Assembly: GCA_963748225.1 (NCBI GenBank)
Contig: CAVVHW010000015.1
Location: 7,838-71,837, forward strand
Origin: an uncultured Acidobacteriaceae bacterium
Lineage (GTDB): Bacteria > Acidobacteriota > Terriglobia > Terriglobales > Acidobacteriaceae
DNA: 64,000 nt
Direction: 5' to 3'
Of this stretch, positions 15,538 through 57,938 are shown one piece after another. Position 1 is the stretch's first letter, and each line of letters starts with the position of its first letter. The translations under genes and the position numbers were made by a program. The notes under the pieces were generated by a model. That model was not told the origin of the DNA. It made no database searches and worked only from the letters and a program-made list of their open reading frames with translations.

Positions 15538-15587
15538 GCCGTGCTCCCACATCAAGGCTAGAGCAACTTCTGAGTTGCTATAACCGC

Positions 15588-15729
15588 CTTGAAGGGGCGC
15601 GGCTTCAGCCGCGCCGATCCGCATTATCAACAACTCGGCCTTTAGACCCTGCGGTGCACCCCCTCAGCGGCTAAAGCCGGTCACTTCCTGCCATCTTTCG
15701 GCACGCCTGAAGCCGTGCCCTTTCAAAGC
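15588..15729. repeat. C-family hairpin repeats (two copies, opposite orientation)
   Basis: cttgaaggggcgcggcttcagccgcgcc (15588-15615) and ggcacgcctgaagccgtgccctttcaaagc (15700-15729). The same unit recurs at 22584, 26693, 50466 and 57285. Confidence 0.65.
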
Positions 15730-22419: not shown

Positions 22420-22620
22420 GCGCCAGTGAAATGAAGCAGGAAAGAAGCAGTCCCTCGGGGCGGAAGAGCTTAGCCCAGCGCTTCAGCGCTGGGGGAGTGA
22501 GAAATAAGACTGAGTCCCGTAGGGACGGCAGAGGTTGCGACACAGGTTCTGAAAGCCCGCTGACTTTAAGAAGAGCCAGTATCGGCGCGGGTGAAGCCGT
22601 GCCCTTTCAAGTCAGTCGAG
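22420..22620. repeat. composite hairpin-repeat array between queD and queE
   Basis: It contains agcccagcgcttcagcgctggg, gagtcccgtagggacgg and the C-family unit ggcgcgggtgaagccgtgccctttcaag (22584-22611). It is related to 4973-5190. Confidence 0.6.
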
Positions 22621-39589: not shown

Positions 39590-39770
39590 TCAGCTATCAG
39601 CCATCAGCTTTCAGCTAGCCCGCAAAGTTGGGGCACCGAGGTTCATCCGCGAAAACCCCTAGGACTGCCTTCGACGACCGAGTCTACTCGAGGCAGAAAG
39701 CCGATGGCTGACGGCTGAAAGCTGACAGCAGTTTCACTAGCCCCTAACCACTATCCACTAGCCCCTGTTT
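39590..39770. repeat. oligomer-repeat block upstream of obg
   Basis: gtcagctatcagccatcagctttcagctagcc ... gccgatggctgacggctgaaagctgacagc (inverted copies) and cactagcccctaaccactatccactagcccctg. Similar oligomers occur at 1096-1125, 34985-35020, 50395-50420 and 51871-51982. Confidence 0.55.
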
Positions 39771-50062: not shown

Positions 50063-52402
50063 TCAACCGAGAGACTGTGCGCTCGCTTGCCGTCGCGCCT
50101 GGATCTCGATATACACGTTGATCAGTGACACCGCCGCGGGGGTGACGCCGGGAATGCGGCTGGCCTGACCCAGGGTGCGGGGACGCACGCGCCCCAGCTT
50201 TTCATTCATCTCGCGCGACAGGCCGCTCACTTTGGCGTAATCGAACCAGTCGGGAATCAGGCGCTCCTCGGAACGCTTCAAGCGCTCGATGGCTTTGCTC
50301 TGCTGGTCCAGGTAGCCGGAGTATTTGATCTCCGTCTCCACCGATTTCAGTTCGTTGCGGATTTCCGCTGGGAGGCGGAAAGCGGGGGATAGTGGATTGG
50401 GGCTAGTGGATAGCACGGAATCCCCGCCTGCTAAGCTCTCTTCAAGAGCAACCTTGGAAATTGGGTTTTGAAAGGGCATGGCTTCAGCCGTGCCGCTAAT
50501 CGTCAATTTTGCAACGGGCTTTGGCCCCTGAGGTTCTTTGCGTTCGGCTGTTCCGGCATTTGTAAGATGCCTTCTATCTACTATTCCCTGATCACTATCC
50601 ACTCGCTCGAAGAATCCCGGCATCAGCCTACGCAGCAACGGCGCCAATTGCTCGATCCCCACCTCTGGCCGCTTCAACAGTTGCGCCAGCGTCAAGCCGA
50701 GTGCGCCGTCCAGCTTGCCGCTATCGAGACTCGCATCTTCAGCCTGAGATAGACCGCCCTCGCCGCCCGTAGTCGAAACTTGAAGGTCGAAACTCGAAAC
50801 TTCTTCCAGCATTTCGCCGTTGATCCGGGTGCACTCCAGCAAATCACGCATGGCCTGCATGCGCTTCTGCTTGGCAAGATGATCAGCCCAGGCAGCATCG
50901 TTAATCAGTCCTACGCGGCGTCCATGCGGAGTGAGCCGGCGGTCGGCGTTGTCGATGCGCAAGTGCAGGCGGAACTCGGCGCGCGAGGTGAACATGCGGT
51001 AAGGCTCGTTTGTCCCCTTGCTGATGAGGTCGTCGATCAGGATGGCGGTGTAGGCCTCGGTGCGGTCCAAAATGAGCGGCGGCTCGCCCTTCACCTGCAG
51101 TGCAGCATTGATTCCGGCCATGATGCCCTGGCACGCCGCCTCTTCGTAGCCGCTGGTGCCGTTAATCTGCCCCGCGAGATAGAGCCGCGCGATCTTCTTC
51201 GTCTCCAGCGTGCGCTGCAGCTCGGTTGGGTCGATGGAATCGTATTCGATGGCGTAACCCGGCCGCAGCATCTCGGCGTTCTCCAAGCCGGGGATTGACT
51301 TGATAATCGCAAGCTGCACATCGATCGGCAGAGAAGTGCTCATCCCATTCACGTAGATCTCGTGCGTGTTCAGGCCCTCGGGCTCCAGAAAGAGCTGATG
51401 CGTTTCCTTGTCGGGAAACTTGACGATCTTGTCCTCGATCGACGGGCAGTATCGTGGTCCGATGCTTTGAATCTGCCCGCTGTACATCGGCGAACGATGC
51501 ACGTTCTCGCGGATGATGCGGTGCGTCTCCGGCGTGGTGAACGCGATGTAGCACGGCACCTGCTTGTCATGGTGCGCCACCCGCCGGGTGCGGAAGCTGA
51601 ATGGCGTGGGATCGTCGTCGCCGGGCTGCACCTTGAACTTCGACCAGTCAATGCTGCGTCCATCGAGACGCGGCGGCGTGCCGGTCTTCAGGCGACAGCC
51701 GCGCAGTCCAAGCGCCTTCAACGATTCACCCAGCAGAACCGCGTTTGGCTCCCCGCTGCGTCCGGCTGGGTATTGTTGCTCGCCACAGTGGATAAGCCCG
51801 TTCAGAAATGTTCCGGTGGTGATGATCACGGCTTGCGCGGAGACGGTGCGCCCGTCGCGCAGGCGAACACCAGTTACCAGTTGTCGGTTGTCAGTTGTCG
51901 GCGAAGAAGCAACAGTTCCCGCGCCTTCGCTCGGGATAACAGACGTTTTGGCTAGTTGCTGATTGCTAGTTGCTAGTTGCTCCACAACCAAATCCGCCAC
52001 CTCCGCCTGCTTTATGTGAAGGTTAGGCTCCGAATCGAGCAGCTCGCGCATCTTCAGCCGGTACTGCTGTTTGTCGCATTGGGCCCGGGGAGACCACACT
52101 GCCGGCCCGCGCGAAGTATTGAGCAGACGGAACTGGATGCCGACCGCGTCCGTTACTTCGCCCATGATGCCGCCCAAGGCGTCCACCTCGCGCACCAGGT
52201 GTCCTTTGGCGATGCCGCCGACCGCCGGATTGCACGACATTTGCGCGATCAGATCGACGTTGAGCGTGAACAGCGCAGTCTTCAATCCCATGCGCGCTGA
52301 GGCCATGGCGGCCTCGCACCCGGCGTGACCGGCGCCGACCACAACCACGTCGTAGGTTTCAGTGAACTGTTGCACAGGAAAACTACCCCACATGGCCGCC
52401 AA
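50063..52402 (-). CDS. mnmG: tRNA uridine 5-carboxymethylaminomethyl modification enzyme MnmG (GidA) with repeat-derived insertions
   Basis: FAD motif [16 protein letters not shown], then [25 protein letters not shown] and a C-terminal [13 protein letters not shown]. At 779 aa it is longer than usual because of in-frame repeat blocks. Confidence 0.95.
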
Positions 52403-56684: not shown

Positions 56685-57938
56685 ATGTCTTTCCGCTTCC
56701 AGGTTGAAGCGCGCGATGGTGCAGCCCGCGCCGGACGTTTCTTCACGCCGCACGGTGAAGTCCGGACCCCCGTCTTCATGCCGGTGGGAACGCTGGCGAC
56801 GGTCAAGGGCGTCCCGCAAGGCACGCTGGAAGAGCTGGGCGTCCAGATCCTGCTGAACAACACCTACCATCTTTATCTGCGCCCGGGCGTCGAGATGGTC
56901 CGCCGACTTGGCGGGGTGCAGAAGTTCATGGCCTGGGACCGTCCCATCCTCACCGACTCCGGCGGCTTTCAGGTGTTCAGCCTCAGCGATCTGCGCAAGG
57001 TCACGGAAGAAGGCGTGGCGTTCCGTTCTCACCTCGACGGGTCATCACATTTTTTCAGTCCGGAGAGTGCCATCGCGGCCGAGATTGGCCTGGGCGCCGA
57101 CATCATCATGGCGTTCGACGAATGTACCGAGCATCCCGCGGAGTACTCGCGCACGGAAGCGTCGATGGAGATGACGCTGCGCTGGGCAGCGCGCAGCAAG
57201 AGGTATTTCGAAGAGCACAAACATGAAGTGCCGTGGTATTCACGCGGACTGAAGTCGGCGGGAGAATTTAATGTCGCGCTGAACGGCACGGCTGAAGCCG
57301 CGTCCCTTCAAAGCGAAAGCGAAACCCAAACGCTCTTCGGAATTGTGCAGGGCGGCATGTTTCCCGATCTGCGTCGTGAATCAGCGCAGCGGACAGTTGA
57401 GCTTGATTTCCCGGGCTATGCGATCGGAGGCTTGAGTGTCGGCGAACCGCGCCCCATGACCTACGAAATGGTGGACGCCGCCATCCGCTTCCTCCCTGAG
57501 GACAAGCCGCGTTACCTAATGGGAGTGGGCACGCCGGAGGAGATTGTGCACTACGTGGCCATGGGTGTGGACATGATGGACTGCGTGCTACCCACACGGG
57601 CGGCGCGGCACGGGTTGCTGTTCACTTCCGAAGGCCGCCTCACGATCAAGAACGCTCGCTATGCCACCGACGACGGTCCGCTCGACCCCAAGTGCGCCTG
57701 CCAGGTCTGCTGCCGCTATTCACGGGCTTATCTGCGGCATCTGTATGCCTCGAACGAGCTACTCGCGCAGGTGTTGAACACCGTCCACAACCTGGCATAT
57801 TACCTTGACACTATGAGGAGGGTGCGGCAAGCTATAATACTTGGGGAATTAGCGATTTTTCTTTCTGGCATCCGGCCACCGCATCTCCCACCCCAATCCG
57901 CGCAAAAGGGGCGCGGCTCGGGGACCCCGGAAAGCTGA
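56685..57938 (+). CDS. tgt: tRNA-guanine transglycosylase (queuine tRNA-ribosyltransferase) with repeat-derived insertion
   Basis: ARAGRFFTPHGEVRTPVFMPVGT, TDSGGFQV, GIVQGG, LMGVGTPEE, and the zinc site CACQVCCRYSRAYLRHL. An extra ~30 aa lies before GIVQGG. Confidence 0.95.
   Translation: MSFRFQVEARDGAARAGRFFTPHGEVRTPVFMPVGTLATVKGVPQGTLEELGVQILLNNTYHLYLRPGVEMVRRLGGVQKFMAWDRPILTDSGGFQVFSLSDLRKVTEEGVAFRSHLDGSSHFFSPESAIAAEIGLGADIIMAFDECTEHPAEYSRTEASMEMTLRWAARSKRYFEEHKHEVPWYSRGLKSAGEFNVALNGTAEAASLQSESETQTLFGIVQGGMFPDLRRESAQRTVELDFPGYAIGGLSVGEPRPMTYEMVDAAIRFLPEDKPRYLMGVGTPEEIVHYVAMGVDMMDCVLPTRAARHGLLFTSEGRLTIKNARYATDDGPLDPKCACQVCCRYSRAYLRHLYASNELLAQVLNTVHNLAYYLDTMRRVRQAIILGELAIFLSGIRPPHLPPQSAQKGRGSGTPES

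Follow-up and report, generated by a model that had tools for sequence, protein, structure and literature searches.

Extra residues in the C-terminal domain of MnmG

The question raised by this locus is where the additional residues of an unusually long MnmG come from. The gene, which belongs to an uncultured soil acidobacterium, lies in a window of 64,000 nucleotides, the whole stretch of DNA analysed, and all coordinates, collected in Table 1, refer to it. Its product was identified as a full-length MnmG (GidA) enzyme by matches to PDB entries 2zxh, 9hip and 3ces (E ~1e-185) and by the Pfam models GIDA (residues 18-440, E = 8e-171), GIDA_C_1st (residues 502-593, covering only model positions 1-71 of 96, E = 4e-10) and SAM_GIDA_C (residues 706-761, E = 3e-24); MnmG chains with a solved structure comprise 637-651 residues, tags counted. 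A sequence-only reading of the window had claimed that a repeat-derived part of the C-terminal domain has no counterpart in the E. coli enzyme, and this was borne out. In a phmmer alignment the E. coli chain offers only ~42 residues opposite query residues 528-670, and the distance between the anchors QLLKRPE and VETxIKY is 363 nt in this genome's mnmG vs exactly 141 nt in 8/8 sister-family genomes, in which a fixed 47-residue connection occupies the site. The extra residues, 601-673, lie between two C-terminal helical sub-domains and are translated hairpin-forming repeat DNA nested in an older hairpin repeat.

Table 1. Features of the mnmG and tgt insertions and related repeats in the window
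Feature	Position	Strand	Description	Basis or remark
mnmG CDS	50063..52402	minus	779 aa, frame intact	ORF list; Pfam GIDA, GIDA_C_1st, SAM_GIDA_C; PDB MnmG matches E ~1e-185
Nested insertion in mnmG	50384..50602	minus	Residues 601-673 (VDSDQG...PNPLSP), 219 nt in frame	Absent from sister family; content variable across genus
Outer hairpin, left arm	50573..50602	minus	GTGGATA-type heptamer array; 10 residues encoded	Inverted repeat I1, 27 nt, 74% complementary
C-family module 1 in mnmG	50516..50535	minus	Small hairpin aaCCTCAGGGGCCAAAGCCC, encodes (E)PQGPKP	Offset from core as in most intergenic copies
Spacer between C-family hairpins in mnmG	50495..50515	minus	Encodes VAKLTIS	Diverges freely between orthologs
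C-family core in mnmG	50466..50494	minus	Hairpin GGCACGGC-TGAA-GCCATGCC plus tail CTTTCAAAA, encodes GTAEAMPFQ	One mismatch to consensus
Outer hairpin, right arm	50384..50413	minus	CTATCCA-type heptamer array; 10 residues encoded	TRF period-7 array 50387-50413; pairs with left arm
tgt CDS	56685..57938	plus	417 aa	ORF list; Pfam TGT E = 3e-151, 381 residues to 346 model positions
C-family insertion in Tgt	57240..57320	plus	Residues 186-212	Module 1 CGCGGACTGAAGTCGGCG 57243-57260; core 57285-57313, encodes GTAEAASLQ
Reference intergenic C-family doublet	15587..15728		Head-to-head	Cores 15587-15615 (-), 15700-15728 (+); copies C15:23424, C15:23537
Intergenic heptamer array	39735..39760	plus	CACTAGC CCCTAAC CACTATC CACTA, resembles mnmG right arm	Sequence; TRF period 7

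Linker length at this site varied from 58 to 152 aa among 96 MnmG homologs and from 159 to 369 nt within the genus (n=20 loci), where 20/20 lengths were multiples of three; frame conservation of this kind argues that the insert is translated. The host ORF is open through the C-family element and the insert length is divisible by three, as in Rickettsia palindromic elements (RPE). The segment was predicted as coil by AlphaFold2 (pLDDT 35-40, with flanking helices at pLDDT 76-92), and this local contrast, in a model built from a 44-sequence alignment of close homologs that is poor overall (mean pLDDT 52.9, pTM 0.43), would suit a disordered surface loop. Modelled as RNA, the insert formed a single closed structure (-77.7 kcal/mol, z = -2.98) that was more stable than 199/200 shuffles.

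The genome was assembled from a metagenome (16 contigs, 92.7% complete, 2.3% contamination) and repeats are well known for producing misjoins, so that a repeat-induced chimeric join could in principle have put repeat DNA inside mnmG. The frame is intact across 219 nt, however, and the arms of the outer hairpin described below are common to dozens of relatives. Moreover, the AEAMPFQ variant of the encoded peptide, together with the insert and homologous flanks, was found in 7 of the 120 closest MnmG homologs, i.e. in six other proteins, and three of these six related inserts were read as DNA, their contigs coming from two further metagenome samples. We consider an assembly artefact extremely unlikely. 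Since seven homologs share the AEAMPFQ insert, the insertion event predates this species.

The C-family repeat element

Each C-family unit consists of two small hairpins, CCTCAGGGGCYAAAGCCC (module 1) and GGCACGGC-TGAA-GCCGTGCC-CCTTCAAA, the latter, or core, having an 8-bp stem, a 4-nt loop and a tail. The mnmG core reads GGCACGGCTGAAGCCATGCCCTTTCAAAA on the coding strand, with one mismatch to the family consensus, and the consensus was matched by 100 copies at <=5 mismatches in the 5.03-Mb assembly, with 0 expected from window shuffles; the unit that had been noticed at 50466-50494 as encoding GTAEAMPFQ is thereby established as a family member. Searches with nhmmer gave 168 matches at E<0.01 and ~190 at E<0.1. 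The copies covary in their stems (GGCACGGC/GCCGTGCC, GGCGCGGC/GCCGCGCC, GGCGCAGC/GCTGCGCC and GGCACACC/GGTGTGCC), and 41/46 pairs were arranged head-to-head with a spacing of 130-137 nt; there were 76 singlets (singlet:doublet 76:46 = 1.65). The family was present in 25/25 genus genomes, with several thousand copies among them, in 0/16 sister-family genomes and in none of the reversed-pattern controls.

In Rfam there was no family for the C unit or the MnmG insert, the best chance matches being CRISPR-DR58 (E = 0.25) and H19_2 (E = 3.8). The 92.7%-complete assembly contains four Y1_Tnp (PF01797) genes, of which 0/4 had a C copy at E<0.01 within 3 kb (nearest, E = 0.46), and no transposase gene was found adjoining a C copy. 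Target-site duplications could not be defined, and none was convincing at the junction of filled and empty Tgt sites. Mobility of the C family is thus suggested by its distribution and by filled and empty sites rather than by a mechanism. No earlier description of the family was found in the papers searched on Koribacter and Korobacteraceae, among which one paper reports K. versatilis tyrosine-transposase genes having TIRs.

The outer heptamer-array hairpin

The sequence-only reading had treated the insert as a single repeat-derived segment. Repeat origin was upheld, but a single repeat was not: the insert is a nested composite in which an outer hairpin holds the C unit. The gtggatag and ggggctagtgg oligomers that had been noted are real and belong to a period-7 array at 50387-50413, which is 74% complementary over 27 nt to 50574-50600; a similar array of CCACTAx-type heptamers lies between genes at 39735-39760. 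Across the genome, the 8-mer GTGGATAG was not enriched (90 observed vs ~141 expected), the corresponding 11-mer was only weakly enriched (8 vs ~2.5 expected), the word GTGGATA was rare, and only 7 arrays of at least three GTGGNNN units were present, while TRF reported 768 arrays of period 7 vs 243 of period 8. The outer element is better described as a low-copy member of an abundant class of period-7 arrays, the class being defined by its periodicity.

Most of the genus has an outer heptamer-array hairpin at the MnmG site. Its left arm was also recovered from P0039, P0006, L004 and G013, and its right arm is kept in relatives as LST(S/I)HYPLS(T/P). What differs is the loop between the arms, which is 28-29 nt only in P0039 and G013, a different element (GTCATCCTGAGCG...) in P0006 and L004, and the C-family unit in this genome and in P0004, P0005 and P0063. 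Orthologs without the element exist for both proteins: in MnmG the sister family has the 47-aa linker and P0039 the outer hairpin lacking a C unit, and in Tgt the site is empty in seven species (see below).

Reading frame of copies within genes

Ten in-frame coding C-family copies were counted in the genome, and 94/100 copies lay outside any verified coding context. The observation that had started this line, namely that the mnmG and tgt copies share a reading frame in two tRNA-modification enzymes, held as far as sharing goes: the tgt copy (57285-57311 translated) encodes GTAEAASLQ, the repeat being read in the phase that is also used in MnmG. The sharing is wider than these two enzymes: the GTAEAxP(L/F)Q frame was found in 7/10 coding copies, namely those of MnmG, Tgt, TilS (two copies), an ABC ATPase, DNA ligase and CheA, the other 3/10 being in the antiparallel phase. 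In-frame copies were confirmed by Pfam boundaries in TilS (2), a DppD-like ABC ATPase, ATP-dependent DNA ligase, CheA, ThiL and an OEP-family protein (2). Nothing ties the insertion to tRNA modification, as the ABC ATPase, DNA ligase, CheA, ThiL and the outer-membrane efflux protein also carry copies. A separate C-family insertion elsewhere in the MnmG of nine relatives is in the GTAEA phase too.

The GTAEA phase is favoured, although part of this preference is trivial. Two of the six frames through the C family nearly always contain a stop, and the GTAEA frame, stop-free in 55/94 non-coding copies, is the most often open of the six. Relative to this stop-free expectation the bias gave p ~0.015 (8 independent events, 6 of them in the GTAEAxPxQ phase, with the frames open in non-coding copies as the null), and stop-codon filtering accounts for only part of it.

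Several long ORFs spanning C copies were rejected as coding because the element lay upstream of an evident start or signal peptide; their hosts were an amidohydrolase, IscU, QueE, an S9 peptidase, an RND adaptor and an outer-membrane barrel. Weak reverse-orientation C-family matches were also seen within an Lhr-like helicase and were assigned to neither class.

The C-terminal domain of MnmG contacts MnmE in the MnmE-MnmG complex. The insert site is within this domain, and no species of the genus is without an insert of some kind, the minimum between the anchors being 53 residues vs 47 in the sister family; the segment might therefore be read as an adaptive, lineage-specific linker or domain, for example one tuning the MnmE-MnmG interaction, with its likeness to repeats being secondary. 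Against this, the linkers differ between species in length (159-369 nt) and in content, which comes from four or more repeat families unrelated to one another; the parts outside the hairpins diverge at a roughly neutral pace; the great majority of copies of this DNA unit lie between genes, and others sit in unrelated proteins; and the predicted conformation is coil. We judge an adaptive linker improbable. The insert peptide is most likely a passenger loop that would have no sequence-specific role, because its spacer and flanks change at close to the neutral rate.

Conservation of the insertions in Tgt and MnmG

Comparison of orthologs, which was carried out for both proteins, found the MnmG insert to be absent outside the genus and the Tgt site to be empty (PWFAERGETQTLFG) in seven species and filled with 66-69 nt in others. 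The polarity of insertion is directly visible at the Tgt site from the empty and filled species. In L048, L049, L052, L054 and L055 the loop of the Tgt C hairpin holds a second nested element; such second elements are inserted at CTGAA|G in the loop.

Within the insertions, the hairpin cores are conserved more strongly at the nucleotide level than is the encoded peptide. In the DNA alignment of four mnmG orthologs, 17/18 positions of the module 1 hairpin were invariant and hairpin nucleotides were invariant at 48/51 positions vs 38% of 4-fold sites, and the intervening spacer read KLTIS, KMDIC, KMALG and KADMC. In the Tgt core, 7/7 four-fold third positions were invariant among six orthologs vs 14% of 4-fold columns gene-wide (p ~1e-5 under a null of <=0.2 per site). 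Gene-wide, synonymous sites are near saturation, and yet the core is invariant. Some force works at the level of the DNA or RNA itself, which may be selection for the hairpin or homogenisation by the numerous copies elsewhere in the genome.

Stem changes bear on these two forces. Compensated pairs were GGCATGGC/GCCATGCC in the mnmG core of P0004, P0005 and P0063 and GGCGCGGC/GCCGCGCC in L037 and L049. Uncompensated changes occur in this genome's mnmG and tgt copies, which carry one C-A mismatch and one mismatch plus one G-U, and in L052 and L055; the partly degraded hairpins of this genome fit neutral decay over strict selection. The intragenic hairpins might be functional cis elements under nucleotide-level purifying selection, either as mRNA structure that influences message stability or the pausing of translation, or as a DNA hairpin recognised by a protein of the host or by a domesticated transposase, so that the peptide would be a by-product of dual-use sequence. 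The invariance of the core at synonymous sites in six Tgt and four MnmG orthologs, the two compensated stems and the folding of the insert RNA relative to its shuffles all speak for such a role. The uncompensated changes speak against it, as do the absence of an Rfam family match, the small number of synonymous sites (7 and 8), and the fact that the compensated variants are sub-families common elsewhere in the genome, for which gene conversion or re-insertion gives the same pattern. This explanation, which would extend that of inserted repeat DNA and not displace it, is possible but doubtful, and the same tentative standing applies to the proposal that the mnmG and tgt hairpins persist as cis elements, e.g. 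as mRNA structure or as a landing or binding site for the repeat-moving machinery. Were it true, hairpin loops would be preferred landing pads and the surface loops of essential enzymes would grow stepwise, hairpin in hairpin, across the genus.

Comparison with known repeat systems

RPE-1 and related Rickettsia palindromic elements are palindromic repeats found in frame within unrelated housekeeping genes (PMC10969869, PMC3733652), and an intragenic REP has been described in the DNA ligase of Opitutus terrae (Di Nocera et al. 2013, PMC3733652). The C family in MnmG is a fresh example of this known effect. As with the Rickettsia elements, its copies are in frame in housekeeping genes unrelated to one another, one phase and thus one conserved peptide recur across hosts, insertions occupy fold-compatible positions, and further copies lie between genes. 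It differs in its host (Acidobacteriota, Candidatus Korobacteraceae by source names) and in presumably belonging to a different sequence family, the likeness being functional only; in its shorter unit (~70 nt, half of a ~165-nt doublet); in its position within the loop of another hairpin, one built of heptamer arrays; and in that several repeat families genus-wide have made use of the same MnmG and Tgt loops.

Likeness to REP/REPIN sequences is seen in a short GC-rich imperfect palindrome, of the 20-40-nt size expected of a REP, with covarying stems, present in ~100-200 mainly extragenic copies, mostly as inverted doublets with fixed spacing. The singlet:doublet ratio of 1.65 is under the limit of 2 used as the doublet criterion (Bertels & Rainey 2011, PMC3116915). 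New C-family copies also form in or beside existing ones, and some are intragenic, including one in DNA ligase. Unlike REP/REPIN, the C family has no GTAG or CGTC tag beside the stem, as the super-families of Di Nocera et al. have, the copies reading ...(t/a)ac GGCACGGC...GCCGTGCC CCTTCAAA, and no RAYT gene flanked by the repeat, and each unit joins two different hairpins and a conserved CCTTCAAA tail.

Bacterial MITEs (Correia/NEMIS, ERIC and Nezha; reviewed in PMC10969869) resemble the C family in being small, non-coding and able to make in-frame fusions with host ORFs, and the C doublet has inverted ends. On the other side, no target-site duplication was recognised for the C family, a search for Y1_Tnp yielded no parent IS with matching ends, and within genes the element is present as a lone half-unit and not as a complete element bounded by TIRs. 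With respect to the outer arms, Elhai and colleagues reportedly described in 2008 cyanobacterial heptamer repeats (STRR) as hairpin-forming tandem arrays, and small dispersed mobile repeats embedded in other repeats. The cyanobacterial arrangement would be alike in its hairpin-forming heptamer arrays and nested small repeats, and unlike in phylum and in repeat words.

Proposed order of insertion and its significance

MnmG residues 601-673 are, with high probability, the translation of non-autonomous palindromic repeat DNA, which came into the gene in two or more steps. In the first, a hairpin with inverted GTGGATA/CTATCCA heptamer-array arms would have been placed in the surface connection between the C-terminal helical sub-domains. 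In the second, one C-family unit, half of the usual doublet, would have entered the loop of this outer hairpin, probably in a common ancestor of this lineage and of at least six others among those sampled. As mnmG is needed, only in-frame, stop-free insertions would persist, and this filter of multiple-of-three length and absence of stops would favour the GTAEAxPxQ phase.

Since living relatives preserve empty, filled and doubly filled sites, the succession of events is open to direct reading. The locus is a clearly resolved example from beyond Rickettsia of selfish repeat DNA written into essential proteins, and one relevant to REP/REPIN biology and to the evolution of protein loops. Three points may be of interest: several repeat families have made use of the same two or three loops in MnmG and Tgt, newly arriving units settle in the loops of hairpins already in place, and the hairpins show no change at synonymous sites even as the translated spacer drifts. 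With regard to annotation, the finding explains Korobacteraceae housekeeping proteins that are 10-30% longer than their orthologs, and such segments should not be taken for domains.

The extra segment of MnmG

The insertion of a C-family unit (a short hairpin-forming repeat) in MnmG belongs to a known kind of in-frame repeat insertions, and the comparative evidence for it is unusually clear. The sequence-only reading had held that this segment is absent from E. coli-type MnmG and repeat-derived, and both points were borne out. Solved E. coli, Aquifex and Chlorobium chains (637-651 residues including tags) aligned to the query in three blocks, and only ~42 E. coli residues faced query residues 528-670. 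The mnmG locus was taken from 24 same-genus genomes and 16 genomes of the sister family, and linker length was measured between the anchors QLLKRPE and VETxIKY. The sister-family linker was exactly 141 nt in 8/8 loci examined (connection ...DPAGW...), and genus linkers ranged from 159 to 369 nt, every length being a multiple of three (n = 20 loci), with 363 nt in the genome studied here. The linker spanned 58 to 152 aa across the 120 nearest homologs in the database, some of them under the NCBI name Candidatus Korobacteraceae. In the AlphaFold2 model (44 close homologs), which was poor overall (pLDDT 52.9), residues 601-671 were coil at pLDDT 35-40 between helices of pLDDT 76-92, which is weakly consistent with a surface loop.

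MnmG was variable in like manner at about residues 141-178 and 533-567; both segments are repeat-derived, being flanked by or made of period-7 arrays (GCTAGTT/GTTGTCG and TCGAAAC). At the first of these, nine relatives carried a separate C-family insertion (CRGLKPT...GTPEGVPLQS) in phase fwd0, the GTAEA reading phase. In one genus genome (G013, locus L007) a frame change within the 29-nt loop of the heptamer hairpin leaves an ORF of 667 aa, and the last helical domain falls in a second ORF of 122 aa; either the gene is really split or broken where the element inserted, or the assembly is off by 1 nt.

Features of the mnmG and tgt insertions and related elements (window positions unless prefixed C7 or C10, which are other contigs of the same genome)
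Feature	Position	MnmG residues	Remarks
MnmG ORF	50063-52402		minus strand, 779 aa
GIDA FAD domain		18-440	Pfam
GIDA_C_1st		502-593	Pfam; only model positions 1-71 of 96 matched
SAM_GIDA_C		706-761	Pfam
Flagged peptide	50384-50602	601-673	minus strand
Arms of outer hairpin	50387-50413, 50574-50600		inverted repeats
C-family core in mnmG	50466-50494		standard spacing from second hairpin
Second small hairpin in mnmG	50516-50535		standard spacing from core
Variable segment	51869-51982	141-178	minus strand
Variable segment	50702-50806	533-567	minus strand
C-family copy in tgt	57240-57320		core 57285-57313; fwd0, GTAEAASLQ
Intergenic heptamer array	39735-39760		similar to mnmG outer arms
Acido-Lenti-1 sRNA	22449-22493		minus strand
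Coding C-family copies outside the window (TilS, ThiL, DppD-like ABC ATPase, ATP-dependent DNA ligase, CheA, OEP-family protein)	C7:45240-45610, C7:252005, C10:62570, C10:567933, C7:545602, C7:919883-920031		

Two repeat layers of the insert

The inner part of the MnmG insert is one C-family unit, located where it had been read from the sequence. The family core, GGCACGGC-TGAA-GCCGTGCC-CCTTCAAA, consists of a hairpin of 8 bp and a conserved tail, and in most copies a second small hairpin, CCTCAGGGGCTAAAGCCC, lies ~20 nt upstream. The core was found 100 times at <=5 mismatches in the 5.03-Mb assembly, and an nhmmer profile recovered 168 copies at E<0.01 and ~190 at E<0.1. Stems covary among copies (GGCGCGGC/GCCGCGCC, GGCGCAGC/GCTGCGCC, GGCACACC/GGTGTGCC). 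Pairs accounted for 92 of the 168 copies (46 pairs, 41 of them head-to-head at 130-137 nt), and 76 were singlets. The core was present in 25/25 genus genomes (7-98 copies each, <=2 mismatches) and in 0/16 sister-family genomes; a reversed-pattern control was never found.

The unit sits within an outer hairpin with arms of 27 nt, 74% complementary, made of 7-nt words (GTGGATA left, CTATCCA right), and TRF reported period 7 in the arm at 50387-50413. The oligomers gtggatag and ggggctagtgg, which had been noticed in this segment, are part of these arms. A C unit occupies the outer loop in the genome studied here and in the database homologs P0004, P0005 and P0063; P0039 has the outer element only (GTGGATAGTGGTCAGTGGATAGTGGATAG, a loop of 28 nt, CTATCCACTAGCCACTATCCACTACCCAC), and in P0006 and the genus locus L004 the same arms enclose a GTCATCCTGAGCG... 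element as loop cargo. Since loop content differs between relatives sharing the same arms, the insert is a hairpin within a hairpin; as RNA it is predicted to form a single closed fold (-77.7 kcal/mol, z = -2.98). Period-7 tandem arrays are abundant in the genome (768, compared with 270 for period 5 and 243 for period 8) and built of many words (AATTAGC, AACTGAC, AACTAGC, AACTGGC and others), the GTGGATA word itself being rare.

Insertion history in mnmG and tgt

A C unit was present at the flagged MnmG site in 7/120 homologs (P0001-P0005, P0017, P0063), all in one common phase and with the minority variant AEAMP(F/L)Q, and the DNA of three of these, which comes from contigs of two further metagenome samples, aligned with homologous flanks. 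The shared insert and alignable DNA argue against an assembly artefact of the genome studied here and indicate that the C unit entered mnmG before its species arose.

For tgt the genus retains the whole series of empty, filled and doubly filled sites. The empty site, PWFAERGETQTLFG, was found in seven species, and in others the site was filled with 66-69 nt (...RGLKSA...NGTAEAVPLQS...). In four species (loci L048, L049, L052, L055) a second composite unit sits directly behind the resident hairpin's loop, GGCNCGGCTGAA, and in one species (L054) a reversed C unit is nested at that loop and read LVTGHDFSRA. In L051 (genome G010) the tgt loop holds, beside the C unit, a run of ~six tandem 21-nt repeats that encode QGE(G/S)QTH, an in-frame minisatellite expansion within an enzyme loop. 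Out-of-frame insertions with stop codons occur in L047 (G016) and L063 (G004), with lengths of 190 and 331 nt. G004 (76% complete) has stops in mnmG too, so an assembly error is likely in its tgt; G016 is 96% complete, and its tgt may be truly broken.

Reading frames of coding copies

The consensus core contains a stop in two of six phases, which were open in only 4/94 and 14/94 non-coding copies. For the 71-nt two-hairpin unit, scored across the same 94 copies, fwd0 (GTAEAVPLQ) was open in 55, fwd1 (ARLKPCPFK) in 33, rev1 (FEGARLQPC) in 41 and rev2 (LKGHGFSRA) in 37, and the remaining two phases, which contain stops, in 1 and 6. Every C-family copy was screened for long spanning ORFs, with domain boundaries assigned by Pfam, and ten in-frame coding copies were found. 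Phase fwd0 was used in MnmG, Tgt, TilS (one unit in the PP-loop domain, one in the linker), a DppD-like ABC ATPase, an ATP-dependent DNA ligase (N-terminal domain) and CheA (Hpt-dimerisation linker). Phase rev2 was used in ThiL (within AIRS_C, reverse orientation) and an OEP-family outer-membrane protein (two tandem units past the signal peptide); none of the ten used fwd1 or rev1. With tandem pairs counted once, giving 8 insertion events, fwd0 was used in 6/8 against an expected share of 0.32 (p ~0.016), and fwd1 or rev1 in 0/8 (p ~0.011). The common fwd0 frame is real, and stop avoidance explains it only in part. The tgt copy does share the phase of the MnmG copy, as had been noted, but the proposal that this frame was fixed in two tRNA-modification enzymes was too narrow: the ABC ATPase, DNA ligase and CheA copies are also fwd0, and frame sharing is not specific to such enzymes.

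Conservation of the hairpins

Across four mnmG orthologs, 48/51 nt of both hairpins were invariant, the insert spacer and flanks were strongly diverged, amino acids included, and 38% of four-fold synonymous columns over the whole gene were invariant (pairwise identity ~60%). Across six tgt orthologs, 7/7 four-fold third positions of the core were invariant (p ~1e-5), with 14% of four-fold columns invariant in the gene; no codon class of the core exceeded 0.2 invariant except CTT, with two columns only. Stem changes were compensated in GGCATGGC/GCCATGCC, and in GGCGCGGC/GCCGCGCC in L037 and L049, and uncompensated in the copies of the genome studied here, L052 and L055. The inserted peptide thus appears to be free of sequence-specific constraint, and the hairpin DNA or RNA would be kept by selection or by recurrent homogenisation against other copies; the data fit both.

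Relation to known repeats

The defining trait of Rickettsia RPEs is that palindromes insert into housekeeping genes without breaking the frame (PMC10969869), and intragenic REPs have been catalogued in other bacteria, with DNA ligase and RNA-related enzymes among the hosts (PMC3733652). REPINs inserting into or beside existing REPINs, and their doublet organisation, have been described (PMC3116915). The C-family resembles REP/REPIN elements in its palindrome, copy number, extragenic bias and inverted doublets, and differs in having no GTAG/CGTC tag. The family had no association with a RAYT either: four Y1_Tnp genes were found in the genome, 0/4 flanked by C copies. No prior description of the family was found in the literature searched. 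Two features deserve follow-up: reused sites at which loops nest within loops, and hairpins conserved even at synonymous sites. Rfam gave no family match to the C unit or the insert; its sole gathering-level match in the window was Acido-Lenti-1 (40.3 bits, E = 1e-5).
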